Assembly (NCBI GenBank): GCA_964016885.1
Contig: OZ024762.1
Coordinates: 27,528,001 to 27,592,000 of the forward strand
Origin: Eledone cirrhosa
Lineage: Eukaryota
Reading direction: 5' to 3'
Length of the DNA stretch: 64,000 nt
The notes under the pieces are model-generated. The model made no database searches, was not told where the DNA came from, and worked only from the letters and a program-made list of their open reading frames with translations. Every line of letters starts with the position of its first letter. The first letter of the stretch is position 1. The position numbers and the translations under genes were made by a program. Below are positions 2,298 to 62,895 of this stretch, one piece after another.

Positions 2298-2346
2298 TTG
2301 CTCCGAAGAAACCAAACCTCGGTTTGAAGGAAACAATTGTAAGCAA
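2298..2346 (+). ncRNA. Minimal type-I hammerhead ribozyme, U4C core variant
   Basis: ttgct-CCGAAGA-aac caaacc tc ggtttg aag-GAAAC-aatt-GTA-agcaa. Confidence 0.6.
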
Positions 2347-2845
2347 ATAAATGACTTAAACTGAACTTTGATTACTGTAATCTCTATATAACTGCTCTGT
2401 AAAACAACTGATGTTATTACATTGAGCTATTTATCTTACTGGTAATAGGATAGTAATTAACGACTATCTCTCACTATTTAGGGTTTGTGTATATATAATA
2501 TATTACCATTAAAGGTTTTATTGCATACATAACCATTAATAGTACCCTTAATACTATATATATATATATATATATATATATATATATATATATATATATA
2601 TATATATGCATGCTACTGTACGTCTGTATACATATATGTATGTACGTATACATACATACTTACATTTAAGTAAGTGCCATACTAAGAGTGAGAAATGAAA
2701 TTTCGTTTTCATTTTTGTCAACTTATCGTTTTCGGTATGCCTGACCGATTTAACTCACTCAATATGCAAATTAGGCTGCTCAGCCGTTAATTTTCATAAG
2801 GAAAGTATATACTTTCGAACGTTCAACTATCTGGCAGATGGGTAT

Positions 2846-2888
2846 ACGGTGCTGATGATAGCTAACAAGCTTGAAACTAGTACATCGT
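2846..2888 (+). ncRNA. Minimal type-I hammerhead ribozyme
   Basis: acggtg-CTGATGA-tagct aaca agctt-GAAAC-ta-GTA-catcgt; 6-bp stem I and palindromic ACTAGT stem III. Confidence 0.8.
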
Positions 2889-3356
2889 TCCTGTGTCAGT
2901 GTTGAACAAAAAGGTGACGTGGTTGCCTTAACACCGTATGGCATAAATTCAGGCTGTTCGATTTTTTTACAAACGAACAAAGCGGCGTTATAATAAGCGT
3001 CCGCTAAACTGATGCGTGCATATATGTATGTGTACCTGTATGTATATATGTATATATATATATATATATATATATATATATATATATATATATATATATA
3101 TATAGATAGATAATTTAATATATCAACTAACATAAGCGCACAGATGCACGCCCATGCTAGCAAATACACAGGTTATGTCATAGTACCTAGGTGGTTCAAT
3201 GCAGGAGAATGCAGAACAATAATATAAAAGACGTAAAATAAGAAAATATTTTTTAAAAAATCCAGTCCTCGCCAGCTGTTCGATCTACCGAATTATTATT
3301 ATTTTTATATGAGCCGCCAGTGTCCGCACATTGCCTGGAGACTTAACTGAGAATAG

Positions 3357-3438
3357 ACTCCCTGATGACGCAATGAATTCTCGACAGTTGGATTACGTAA
3401 CTGTCTTTATCCCATTGCAGAAACTAATTAGTTGGAGT
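3357..3438 (+). ncRNA. Type-I hammerhead ribozyme with extended stem II (family A, copy 1)
   Basis: actcc-CTGATGA-c gcaatg...gacagtt/aactgtc...cattgc a-GAAAC-taatta-GTT-ggagt. Confidence 0.85.
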
Positions 3439-3913
3439 GAAAATTTAAGTAAGTAAGTAAAAATTTTTTTTAAATTTTTTTTAAAAATATTTTCTTATTT
3501 TACGTCTTTTATATTATTGTTCTGCATTCTCCTGCATTGAACCACCTAGGTACTATGACATAACCTGTGTATTTGCTAGCATGGGCGTGCATCTGTGCGC
3601 TTATGTTAGTTGATATATTAAATTATCTATATTTATCTCCAAATCACTGATTTGTCGAGCAAACTTGCCAAAACCACTTCTAAAAAAATTTTTTGGGGTG
3701 TTAGTAGGCGTCAGTCATCTTACCATCCCATTCCTTCTAACTAGCCTCTGTGTCACGTGATTGATTCTTTAGAATCGGCCATTCGACCTGAAGCAGTGAG
3801 AATTTCGGTACATAGAATCCAGTCCTCGCCAGCTGTTCGATCTACCGAATTATTATTATTTTTATATGAGCCGCCAGTGTCCGCGCATTGCCTGGAGACT
3901 TAACTGAGAATAG

Positions 3914-3995
3914 ACTCCCTGATGACGCAATGAATTCTCGACAGTTGGATTACGTAACTGTCTTTATCCCATTGCAGAAACTAATTAGTTGGAGT
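3914..3995 (+). ncRNA. Hammerhead ribozyme (family A, copy 2)
   Basis: Same sequence as 3357-3438. Confidence 0.85.
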
Positions 3996-4471
3996 GAAAA
4001 TTTAAGTAAGTAAGTAAAAAACTTTTTTTTAATTTTTTTAAAAAATATTTTCTTATTTTACGTCTTTTATATTATTGTTCTGCATTCTCCTGCATTGAAC
4101 CACCTAGGTACTATGACATAACCTGTGTATTTGCTAGCATGGGCGTGCATCTGTGCGCTTATGTTAGTTGATATATTAAATTATCTATATTTATCTCCAA
4201 ATCACTGATTTGTCGAGCAAACTTGCCAAAACCACTTCTAAAAAAATTTTTTGGGGTGTTAGTAGGCGTCAGTCATCTTACCATCCCATTCCTTCTAACT
4301 AGCCTCTGTGTCACGTGATTGATTCTTTAGAATCGGCCATTTGACCTGAAGCAGTGAGAATTTCGGTACATAGAATCCAGTCCTCGCCAGCTGTTCGATC
4401 TACCGAATTATTATTATTTTTATATGAGCCGCCAGTGTCCGCGCATTGCCTGGAGACTTAACTGAGAATAG

Positions 4472-59409: not shown

Positions 59410-59715
59410 GTATTCAATGATATTAAATAAATGGAAACTATATTTATAAAACCATATTTATTCAATTATATATATTTGAAGGGTACCAAATAAAATACAA
59501 AATGTTTTATAAATATTTGACATGACCAAGGATAATATACTTTAACGGTTCTTCCAGGGATAACTTGAACTGTTAAGGTATATTATCCTTGGTCATGTCA
59601 AATATTTATAAAACATTTTGTATTTTATCTGATGATAGCATACCAAAATGTTGGTACCCTTGAAATATATATGTTTTATAAATATAGTTTCCATTTATTT
59701 AATATCATTGAATAT
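59410..59715. repeat. Inverted repeat holding a broken family-B-like hammerhead (CTGATGA at 59629-59635)
   Basis: 59410-59550 mirrors 59570-59715; related to 15160-15260; the 3' strand of stem I is lost. Confidence 0.6.
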
Positions 59716-60849
59716 TTACTCCAGAAAGCTGTTGAGTGCTCTGAATGAGTTATAAACATTTATATTTATTTGTTGTATATCCAACAAATTAAATATCCCT
59801 TCTACTTGTATATATGTATATATATATTTATATATATATATATATTTATATATATATATTTATATATTTATGTATATATAGTGTATTTGGTAATATACTG
59901 TATGCTTAATTAAAAGCATTTTGAAGACCTTACGCTATTGTTTTAAAGTAGTGACTATGTAATTTACTTCTTTTTTCAACAAACAAAGGGAGATAAGCTT
60001 ACAGATCTCTGTTGATATTTCTCAGACCTTATCACTCCCCTTGTCTGTTGAAAATTATTAATGTTGGATTCTTATAGAATTCCAGTAATAATCAGGAACT
60101 GATTATACAGAGCGGTTGTCGATCCAACAAACATTTAAAATTAGAATTGGTGCTCTGAAATAGCGATGTAGTGTATTACCAAATACACTATATATACATT
60201 CATATATACATCGCTATTTCAGAGCACCAATTCTAATTTTTAATTTTTGCTGGACCGGCTCTGTATAATCAGTTCCTGGACTTGGCAATCGCTTTGTATA
60301 TTCAGTTCCTGGACTTGGCTGCTATTTCTAGTTGTCGATAATCCTATTCATTCCACTGGGATGAAGGTAGAACGATGTGTGTATTTTTAAAATAATTGCA
60401 ACACGTGCTGCTAGTCATTCGCAGATTTGCATTTGCTGTGTAAACACAGATAGTTAAATCTTCTCCCTTGTTGAATTTGACTACTGTGGTTTACCGATCG
60501 ATTGATGGTGAAATATATTTCTTTACAAAAGTATCACTTATCTACATTGTTCCGCTTACAGATTAATATATACACGGAAGATTAATCATTTTAAAAGGTA
60601 TCTATATTTAAAGTTCTAGTTAAACTTTAATTAGTTCCCTACCTAGCTGTGTGTGCTTACACACTTTTACAAATTATTCCCTGTGATTGTTTCATATGTT
60701 TATTTTAGATATATATATATATGTCAATCAATTTCTAGTTGATATATATATATGGGAACGATCGACTTTCGTCAAATCGGACCGAGGGAACAATGTTTCC
60801 GTTGGTCTTTCCAATTGCTAATACTATCTATCGGTCGCAACTCCAGGTA

Positions 60850-60965
60850 GAATGAGCAACGTGAAATAAAGTGTCTTGCTCAAGGACATAACGCATCGCC
60901 TGGTCCAGGAATCGAACTCAGAACCTTACGATTGCGAATCCAATTCTCTAACCACACGCCTTCAC
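60850..60965 (-). mobile_element. SINE 5' portion (family of 51283-51600)
   Basis: Reverse complement gaaggcgtgtggttagagaattggattcgcaatcg...ccttgagcaagacactttatttcacgttgctc. Confidence 0.75.
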
Positions 60966-61039
60966 TATATATATATATATATATATATATATATATATAT
61001 ATATATATATATATATATATACACACACACACACACACA

Positions 61040-61530
61040 TACTCACCGTCCCTCCCATGTAACTGCACTCGCACCTTCCATAGTTTCCTTACCGTCCATC
61101 CTGTAAAACAGCACCACGTGCCTTCTATAGTGTGTCACTCATACTGTTACTCCATGTGACAGCACTTCTTGCCATCCATATTATTCTCACTATCCGTCCC
61201 TCCCGTGTCACCACACCTCCCACCTTCCGTAGCATTCTCACCGTCCCTCCCATGTAATACCACCTCCCACGTTCCATAGTATCCTTACTGTCACTCCTTG
61301 GTAACTGCGCCTCCCGCCTCCCATAGTATTCTCACCTCCCACCATCCGTATTATTCTCACCGTCCCTCCTATATAACAGTACTTCCCACCTTCCATAGTA
61401 TCCTCACTGTCACTCCTGTGTAACAGCACCTCGCGTCATCCATAGTATTCTCACCGTCCCTGCACGTCCCACCTTCCATATATCTCCACCGTCCCTCCCT
61501 TCTGACAGCACCTCTCACCATCCCTCCCAT
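61040..61530. repeat. Degenerate minisatellite of about 40-50 bp
   Basis: Recurring ttctcaccgtccctccc...cacctcccaccttccatagta. Confidence 0.7.
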
Positions 61531-62850
61531 TCATTCCTTTGTATCAGTACATATTTCTACATTCCCCATATCCGCCATTTTGTTTTAATAACATTCAGCA
61601 AAAATTGTTTCTATATTTATCTACTTAGTCTGATAATTAAGTTTTTCCTCAAGTCAGTGTTGTATGTATATGTGTGTATATATGTCAATATATATATATA
61701 TATATATATGAAAAATATGAAAACATGGCGTGCTGCGTGGTTGCAAATGGGTTACATGTGAATAAATTTAGTCCTTTATCAGTGATCTTCCAGCCTTCAT
61801 TGGTATTTCATCGCTTTAAATATATATATATATATATATATACATACATGTATATATGCATATATATATATATATATATATATATATATATATATATATA
61901 TATATATATATATATATATATACATACATGTATATATGCATACATATATATATATACATACATACATGTATATATGCATATATATATATATATATACATA
62001 CATACATGTATGTATATATGTATATATATATATATATATATATATATATATATATATATATATATATATATATATATATATATATATATATATATATATA
62101 TATATATAATATATATATATGTGTGTGTGTGTGTAGATAAATCTACCAAAATATACGGTAGTGTCCAATCCGTATGAAGAACTCAATATAATCCAAATAT
62201 CATGAAAAGAGAAGATGCATTCAAAACTTTTTGATGAAAATCATAGGAAAACAGAGTCAAGATAAATGAATAAAAACAATGAATAAAAACAAAGAAACAG
62301 TTCCTTATATTAAAAAGTTCATCATTCATCGATCGTTTCTACGATATATATGTGTGTGTTGGTATGTATATCATATAGATCTATGTAAAAATGTTACAAA
62401 CTATCAGAGGGAATATACAATATTTCTGAATACAGCATATATATGTGTAGGTATGTATATTCCCTCTGATATTTTGTAAAATTTTTACATAGATCTATAT
62501 GATATACATACCAACGTACACATATATATCCTAGAGACGACGTAAAATGATGAATTTTTTTAATATAAGGAACTGTTTCTTTGTTTTTATTCATTTGTTT
62601 TTATTAATTTATATATATATATATATATATTACTCTTTTACCTGTTTTAGCCATCCGGCTGAGGCCATGCTGGGGCACCGCCCTTGGTATATATATATAT
62701 ACATACATGTATATATGCATATATATATATGAATGTATATATATAGTATATTTGGCAATATACTGTATACTTAATTAAAAACATTTTGAAGACCTTTTAA
62801 AGTAGTGACTATGTCACTTACTTCTTTTTTTCAACAAACGAAGGGAGATA

Positions 62851-62895
62851 AGCTGACAGATCTCTGTTTCGTACTAGTTGGTATTCATCAGAGCC
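62851..62895 (-). ncRNA. Type-I hammerhead ribozyme with a GUC site
   Basis: Minus strand: ggct-CTGATGA-atac caacta gtac-GAAACAGA-ga-TCT GTC-agct. Confidence 0.75.

Follow-up and report, generated by a model that had tools for sequence, protein, structure and literature searches.

Hammerhead ribozyme motifs in Penelope-like elements and non-coding retrozyme units of the octopod Eledone cirrhosa

The window analysed here is a stretch of 64,000 nucleotides of Eledone cirrhosa DNA (contig OZ024762.1, positions 27528001-27592000) in a genome of 2,996 Mb. It contains many copies of the hammerhead ribozyme (HHR) motif, some at the 3' ends of Penelope-like elements (PLEs), whose open reading frames (ORFs) encode a reverse transcriptase (RT) and a GIY-YIG domain, and others in short non-coding units of the retrozyme kind. 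A first-pass annotation of this DNA had proposed both carriers, coding PLEs and non-coding HHR elements, and both are present: with element bounds drawn by hand, PLE-linked sequence makes up 36% of the non-microsatellite DNA, non-coding units 20% and unassigned elements 6%, about 61% together. Repeat families were found by masked self-BLAST, since a plain repeat search was swamped by microsatellites.

Hammerhead motifs and the constraint on their core

We scanned the window with a strict type-I descriptor requiring a CUGANGA or UUGANAA core, GAAA, UH, stems I-III and a score of at least 9; it replaced a descriptor demanding a 3-nt loop III, which gave 5 window matches and missed the minimal motifs. 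The shuffled control proposed with the first-pass annotation was run: the strict scan matched the window 19 times and 20 shuffles with preserved local dinucleotide content not once, and 17 of the 19 were positions already on that annotation's list. Bare CUGANGA occurred 43 times, against 17.8 +/- 3.8 in 60 shuffles. Rfam gave nothing over the window at the gathering threshold, and at E<=10 no hammerhead stood among the best 150 of 416 rows, a list swamped by microsatellite matches to miRNA models.

All 36 positions on the list show the type-I hammerhead layout within about 120 nt. Seventeen of the 36 pass the strict descriptor, and the site at 33892 is a near miss with a score of 8.8. In nine the core is intact, and either stem II is weak or very long or stem I is damaged (5120, 6150, 11225, 11804, 14934, 18489, 24915, 25330 and 36095), five are damaged copies (10717, 11416, 16527, 29106 and 34349), and four carry a core variant common to their family, CCGA at 2298 (also in six of eight other copies) and CAGA at 13630, 57572 and 57625. 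At 29823/30414/30953 and 31267 the core is of the U3-A8 type and not the CUGANGA that had been given. Nine sites lie beyond the list (6304, 10825, 18706, 20415, 34027, 38065, 53344, 59629 and 61782), and there is no motif in 38.2-53 kb of the window. The earlier figure was about 30 motifs in about 15 families; by our own grouping the listed 36 sites fall into about 17 families, and with the nine further sites the window has about 45 motifs, of about 20 families.

Because inverted repeats do not survive shuffling, the constraint on the core was tested on real DNA that keeps its palindromes: the window and 95 of 98 10-kb loci, 1.014 Mb in all, three array loci having been dropped. When the 3-8 pair was varied, C3-G8 gave 120 matches, U3-A8 28 and the other 14 combinations 0-5. 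Changes at G5, A6, A9, A13, A14 and A15.1 gave 0-3 matches and those at G12 3-9; changes of U4 to A (14 matches) or C (7) are real variant families. Position N17 was A, C or U in 94, 24 and 30 matches and G in 1 of 149, and the constraint at position 16.1 was looser (U 148, others 13-28). Twenty-five decoy (permuted) cores run on the unshuffled DNA gave 0-2 matches each, with a mean of 0.44 against 120 for C3-G8. The hammerhead core is under ribozyme-type constraint across this 1.014 Mb. Chance matching in AT-rich, palindrome-rich repeat DNA can draw on the loose descriptors, which match a shuffled window 3.5-8 times, and the weak singletons of the sample probably include a few false matches; set against the empty shuffles of the strict scan, the decoy cores, and the U3-A8 compensation and G17 exclusion that appeared although the constraint test did not impose them, it retains practically no probability as an account of the motifs. 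Of 52 distinct helix III segments, 18 are self-complementary, where 6.8 would be expected. In PLE HHRs this feature has been described as a dimer signature, and cutting as dimers is established (PMC4209133); the minimal motifs with a palindromic helix III in E. cirrhosa would also be cut as dimers.

Penelope-like elements and non-coding units

Pieces of RT or GIY-YIG ORFs lie at 2-1186, 12537-12719, 23569-24651, 26781-28903, 32473-33067, 53791-55620 and 56888-57547. RT is followed by a C-terminal GIY-YIG domain in a single ORF, with Pfam RVT_1 and GIY-YIG matches, some below the curated cut-off, on 26784-28310 and 53794-55620. Three PLE ORFs of the window have the Cx4CxxC linker, a trait of Neptune and Nematis (PMC8557442), and the best protein match of the PLE at 26332..29365 was to Octopus vulgaris, at 66%. 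HHRs occur in the PLE terminal repeat, and two PLE families have non-canonical cores there. In eight strict families and the CAGA family, the end of a PLE ORF lies upstream of the HHR on the same strand at a family-specific distance: 236-317 nt in the family of the motif at 26525, about 0.95 kb in the CAGA family and 0.96-1.35 kb in the seven others. As most copies in these families amount to short stubs, many motifs that look non-coding are truncated PLE ends; longer copies outside the window have the end of a GIY-YIG ORF 0.24-1.35 kb upstream of the motif. The idea of a community of non-coding HHR elements holds for units of 420-630 bp, and many of the motifs so classed are instead the 3' ends of 5'-truncated PLEs. 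About eight motif families have no assigned carrier type.

A palindromic PLE insertion (26332..29365, both strands) consists of an RT-GIY-YIG ORF at 26781-28310 on the minus strand and an inverted 5'-truncated arm, with HHRs at 26525 minus and 29111 plus and related copies at 34354 and 56670. A second PLE (53105..56385, minus) has an RT-GIY-YIG ORF at 53791-55620, an inverted tail arm and a CAGUUGA-core HHR-like motif at 53344. A 5'-truncated PLE (23457..25207, plus) retains the C-terminal half of the RT and the GIY-YIG domain, and its minimal HHR (core 24919) lies 268 nt past the stop. At the left edge an ORF fragment with RT and the Cx4CxxC linker (1..1186, minus; RVT_1 E 2e-8) has its GIY-YIG end in the left neighbour, locus L010. 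The remaining coding pieces are PLE 3' ends: a C-terminal GIY-YIG fragment and 3' UTR with a CAGA-core HHR-like motif at 13635 plus (12537..13697, both strands); a GIY-YIG fragment and inverted arm with a 1.1-kb 3' UTR and a UUGAGAA-core HHR at 31355 (31175..33068, minus); and an end with an HHR at 56670 minus followed by a palindromic CAGA-core pair at 57616 minus and 57630 plus (56420..57785, both strands).

Other insertions carry paired or single HHR motifs. Divergent pairs are formed by PLE-linked 3' ends with cores at 5853 minus and 6157 plus (5659..6247; PLE link through locus L006, another copy at 22217 minus), by a PLE-linked family at 20415 minus (damaged) and 21998 plus (20200..22100; link through locus L018), and by motifs at 11278 minus and 11420 plus (11177..11668), whose family also forms a 1,960-bp tandem. 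A palindromic insertion at 10635..10979 carries two damaged HHR copies, 10792 minus and 10825 plus. Single motifs comprise a CCGA-core type-I HHR-like motif whose stem II is weak in this copy (2298..2346, plus), in an element at about 2184-2555 of an unassigned family; a type-I HHR with a 94-nt stem II (5119..5247, minus, core 5242); a minimal HHR with a 2-bp stem II and a palindromic CAAUUG helix III (11804..11872, plus), with a second copy at 14939; a type-I HHR 3' end (15157..15264, minus, core 15253) with a damaged palindromic relative at 59414-59711; and a strict type-I HHR absent from the earlier list (18654..18713, minus, core 18706). Two short HHR ends follow each other at 33892..34064 on the plus strand (cores 33895 and 34027), and the second has a relative at 62891 minus.

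The non-coding units measure about 440, 557/541, 591 and 506-630 bp and, tentatively, 1,960 bp, and are tandem or terminally redundant. The unit of about 440 bp (2608..4828, plus) has a minimal HHR core at 2852 with a predicted cut after 2882, and its terminal repeat resumes at 4712-4828 past a nested insertion. That insertion is a tandem of a 557-bp retrozyme (3108..4636, plus; cores 3362, 3919 and 4477) whose short inverted arm lies at 3124-3258. Its target was (TA)n: the 557-bp array lies inside the internal TA run of the 440-bp unit. We rejected a target-site duplication as the origin of the matching segments 2608-2716 and 4712-4820, which are the terminal repeat of the 440-bp unit. A truncated copy of the 557-bp family lies at 19959..20134 on the minus strand (core 20101), and a 541-bp tandem about 75% identical to the 557-bp unit lies at 25270..26226, also minus (cores 25406 and 25947). 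The 591-bp retrozyme has a U3-A8 core and occupies 29589..31112 on both strands as a minus-strand tandem (29905 and 30496) with an inverted arm (30958); its 3' ends lie +77 and +239 from the cut site, each on (TA)n. When contigs of four runs of unspecified kind were compared with 29560-31130, X1 and X6 each gave one contig, of 621 and 620 nt. Their length of one unit plus 30 is what an assembly cycle looks like; we did not use them, as a circle and tandem DNA would both produce it. A partial tandem of 1,960 bp (15735..18600, plus; cores 16531 and 18493) has no ORF longer than 74 aa, an inverted tail arm at 15735-15808 and a related copy at 36098. This HHR-bearing unit (15810-18600) is far longer than described retrozyme units and was seen in one tandem; its class is tentative.

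The tandem units of 557, 541, 591 and 310 bp, the last from the neighbourhood of the window, each have one type-I HHR, ORFs of at most 75 aa and a GC content of 34-42%. Four units, among them the 310-bp one, were folded as circles, and all four are predicted to be more highly self-paired than 25 shuffles each (z -2.7 to -8.4).

Other repeats share the window. A short interspersed repeat free of HHRs occurs at 15261-15377, 19127-19381, 21342-21527 and 33135-33290, and presumably resembles an octopus tRNA-derived SINE. A non-LTR RT fragment lies at 36338-37321 plus (RVT_1 E 3e-9) and a decayed non-LTR element with a zinc-knuckle ORF at 38245-41657 minus, followed by a degenerate TAACCC-type interstitial array of about 800 bp and a 49-bp tandem array (42430-43930). 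Palindromic repeats at 60030-60278 and 62265-62609 have copies elsewhere and no convincing HHR; they are possibly tail-only or decayed arms. Outside the window, the sampled locus L046 is an AT-rich satellite with many weak false matches to loose HHR descriptors.

Rearranged and variant cores and the abundance of motifs

One family has the hammerhead blocks in the order S-G-C. In the window it is represented by a hammerhead-like motif with a split stem II (6287..6395, minus, CUGAUGA at 6304), by a non-coding unit of about 506 bp (37470..38136, plus) with its motif at 37974-38082 (CUGAUGA 38065), and by a 5'-truncated relative (61765-61828, minus, 61782); a divergent relative lies at L089:5335-5456. 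The family resides in non-coding units of 500-630 bp. A scan for this order with CUGANGA found 10 matches in 1.04 Mb, against 0-3 (mean 0.75) for 20 decoys. In nine copies the 34 proposed pairs were 88.5% paired, 17 of them with two-sided changes, which exceeded every one of 500 shuffles and every slid control. Stem III is paired in 100% and stem I in 98% of cells, with three two-sided changes each, most of them from one divergent copy. The two sides of stem II pair with different upstream segments, and a single stem joining block C to block G was not found. Because the structure was drawn from the same sequences and the covariation comes largely from one divergent copy, the case for a hammerhead-like motif in rearranged block order is moderate, and because stem II is split we have not filed the family as type SGC. 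It resembles the type-SGC hammerheads and HRIMA-1 (PMC10085705) in its S-G-C block order, its pseudoknotted stems I and III and all of its core bases. It differs in that stem II consists of two helices joined through a hairpin, and in being an animal genomic repeat, whereas the available text on HRIMA-1 draws on metatranscriptomes and environmental data and not on genomes of known organisms.

In the CAGA family (13635, 57616 and 57630 in the window; core CAGAAGA, a U4A change) at least 13,036 copies carry A4, and 180 have another base there. The changed core may be tolerated, or the ribozyme may be dead and yet have been no obstacle to the spread of the family. A CAGUUGA core with hammerhead stems in a PLE 3' UTR (53315-53344 minus) is kept in 90 of the first 100 of 2,748 matches. 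A literature search on U4A hammerhead cores gave nothing relevant. Both variant-core families are PLE-linked, and the non-coding units keep canonical or compensated cores; the numbers are small, and the pattern fits cleavage being needed by circles and optional for PLEs.

The strict descriptor matches the window at 297 per Mb, the shuffles at 2-7 per Mb. In 200 kb of window neighbours the density is 365 per Mb, with 27 of the 73 matches coming from one 310-bp array; at distant loci it is 157 per Mb on chromosomes C1-C4 (44 loci) and 71 per Mb on C5-C20 (34 loci). These loci were taken at fixed round coordinates and are not a formal random draw, and chromosomes from C21 onward were sampled beside the window only. 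The array runs from L002:8479 to L003:6629, about 100 kb left of the window, and has two arms of near-identical 310-bp units, 9 minus and 18 plus, that account for 27 strict matches; the same family is present in L072. Raw extrapolation gives 337,000 strict motifs genome-wide (95% 239,000-445,000). The sample over-counts exact-pattern copies (30 seen, 18.1 expected), and the estimate was lowered for that reason: a total of about 200,000-340,000 is likely. Exact genome-wide counts were made for five families, 23,477 for the core of the 440-bp unit, 14,889 for that of the 26525 family, 13,036 for CAGA, 10,635 pattern matches for S-G-C and 7,444 for the 591-bp unit, with none in the backward controls; the three canonical exact patterns set a hard floor of 45,810 motifs. 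Clustering the sampled motifs gave 47 clusters at 80% identity, 23 of them singletons. Ten of the 11 strict families of the window recur in the 0.98 Mb sampled elsewhere; the window is enriched in hammerheads and is not unique. A Chao2 richness of 175 families was not relied on, being inflated by false singletons.

Insertion footprint, templates and significance

The copies carry an insertion footprint. Among same-family neighbours within 4 kb, 28 are divergent, 3 convergent and 34 tandem (27 of the latter from the 310-bp family). Of 88 motifs from random loci, 63 have a (TA)5 beginning 20-250 nt past the predicted cut; at random the share would be 16%, and on the upstream side 35 of the 88 have one. 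Each family has two preferred 3' ends, for example at about +155/+215 (26525 family), +21-25/+115 (CAGA) and +77/+239 (591-bp unit). Of 25 divergent pairs examined, 22 were resolved and three were not, and in 16 of the 22 the end points of the two arms differ by 50 nt or more. The templates were uncut or re-ligated, since the cut site is not the end of any copy. The PLEs themselves show an inverted 5'-truncated arm and a tail at one end, and the units lacking an ORF share their marks, with (TA)n as the target, arms in divergent orientation and, downstream of a ribozyme left uncut, 3' ends at two fixed points. Most of the divergent pairs belong to PLE-linked or unassigned families. Non-coding examples come from the 591- and 467-bp units and, judged by eye, from the 557-bp, 440-bp and S-G-C units. 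The pattern is that of the inverted arm and tail known for PLEs (PMC8557442), and in the PLE PAc it is explained by RT initiation, measured at two internal sites, and by a nick in each strand (PMC11167929). The likeness to endonuclease-bearing PLEs extends to RT with a C-terminal GIY-YIG domain, partial tandems and AT-rich or (TA)n targets; the tails here are about 50-160 nt against 30-40 bp in those accounts, and the anatomy is found here also in ORF-less units (PMC8557442, PMC11167929).

We read the window, with a probability of about three in four, as a nest of retroelement 3' ends, made up of truncated PLEs and retrozymes of 420-630 bp that were copied into (TA)n by PLE protein from RNA circles. 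From the insertion marks we infer PLE-driven copying of the non-coding units along the following lines. Retrozyme RNA would be cut to monomers by its own ribozymes and the monomers ligated into circles. A PLE reverse transcriptase-endonuclease would nick both strands of a (TA)n site and begin synthesis internally, 10-290 nt downstream of the ribozyme, at one of two points, so that each arm would record an intact hammerhead, uncut or re-ligated. Early termination would leave short HHR-bearing stubs, and an RT running round the circle would lay down from 1.2 to more than 20 units. Each insertion, flanked by (TA)n, would offer the next target, and the nest would be built in this way.

Several points weigh against this interpretation. 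PAc inserts from uncut RNA, and HHR mutants had no effect on its insertion in vitro (PMC11167929); two PLE families have spread with non-canonical cores, so cutting may be dispensable. Only one of nine Xenopus dimers showed cleavage (Li, Clavereau, Pollet 2026, bioRxiv 10.64898/2026.07.22.740005; hereafter Li 2026). Six of the 22 resolved arm pairs are symmetric, and the element bounds were hand-drawn. Eight query units had no nucleotide homology beyond low-complexity DNA to 11 PLE-linked 3' regions in a sample of 0.03% of the genome, whereas in Xenopus the 21 transposable elements matching retrozymes were PLEs (Li 2026).

The main rival keeps the PLE-driven insertion and replaces the circle by a linear multimer as template. 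Transcribed from a tandem array that is already in place and left uncut, this multimer would account equally well for the tandem copies; the ribozyme would trim transcripts or ride along, and circles would play no part. PAc's internal initiation on unprocessed RNA is a precedent (PMC11167929), all copies keep an intact HHR, and the CAGA family's predominant A4 is compatible with spread of this kind. We nonetheless consider it improbable, since non-coding units of unrelated sequence have without exception retained canonical or compensated cores and, as circles, fold better than shuffled sequence, since one insertion has arrays with more than 20 units of 310 bp on its two arms, and since circles are known for the retrozymes of coral, mussel and axolotl (PMC7229834). 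A good deal less probable again is that all motifs are remnants of the pseudo-LTRs (pLTRs) of autonomous PLEs and the short tandems immobile satellites grown by unequal crossing-over. Most traceable short motifs are indeed PLE 3' ends, and the birth of satellites from pLTRs has been discussed (Li 2026); against this, the units occupy thousands of sites spread over many chromosomes, have fixed ends and inverted arms of their own, and showed no PLE homology in the 11 sampled 3' regions.

PLE hammerheads and non-LTR retrozymes are already published; one coral, for instance, has more than 6,000 motifs, which form 16 families (PMC7229834). That retrozymes derive from PLEs is the argument of a 2026 preprint (Li 2026). 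The community had been called probably uncatalogued; this holds as far as our search of the literature on octopus, cephalopods and molluscs goes, which found no report of a cephalopod hammerhead, retrozyme or PLE ribozyme (supplements may list cephalopod motifs). The main text of a 2026 repeat annotation of Octopus vulgaris (PMC13282606) mentions no ribozyme, hammerhead or retrozyme. Like published PLE hammerheads, those described here have a short or palindromic helix III, an extra base after A9, a U3-A8 variant, many families in each genome, pairs on opposite strands 100-700 bp from each other and mostly truncated PLE ends. They are far denser than in the published cases (about 2,000+1,300 in Schistosoma, 9,000 in Xenopus), and two families have the CAGA or CAGUUGA cores, unmentioned in the available text of those accounts. 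With metazoan retrozymes (PMC7229834; Li 2026) our units share low-GC non-coding tandems, one type-I HHR per unit, a self-paired predicted circle and co-occurrence with PLEs. They differ in measuring 420-630 bp, with one of 1,960 bp, in lacking detected pLTR homology, in being known from genomic DNA alone, and in features that the available text of those studies does not describe: inverted arms of PLE type, 3' ends fixed at two points and (TA)n as the target. The community of the window is of a known kind, and its footprint, its density and some variant cores go beyond the published accounts as far as those are available. A bolder formulation, to which we give rather less than even odds, is that no hammerhead population counted so far is as large as that of E. 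cirrhosa (2-3.4 x 10^5), with active PLE copying of ORF-less ribozyme circles onto both ends of nicked (TA)n and working ribozyme architectures not described in animals, namely the split-stem-II hammerhead and the fixed U4A or U4A/A6U cores.

If the estimate holds, octopod genomes would carry about 70-110 hammerheads per Mb against about 4.5 in the axolotl (126,247 motifs, PMC7229834; 28.21 Gb, Li 2026), a comparison across differing descriptors. Hammerheads in octopod genomes would have been overlooked, given that Rfam misses those of the window. For the movement of animal retrozymes, PLEs have been named as candidates from co-occurrence or homology, and the role is unproven in those accounts (PMC7229834; Li 2026). 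In E. cirrhosa the ORF-less units carry a PLE footprint, defined start sites and young, near-identical copies, and candidate PLE proteins adjoin them, so that a test of trans-mobilisation in vitro can be specified. The variant cores and the permuted family offer a test of the rules of the hammerhead in nature, and of whether PLEs need cleavage.

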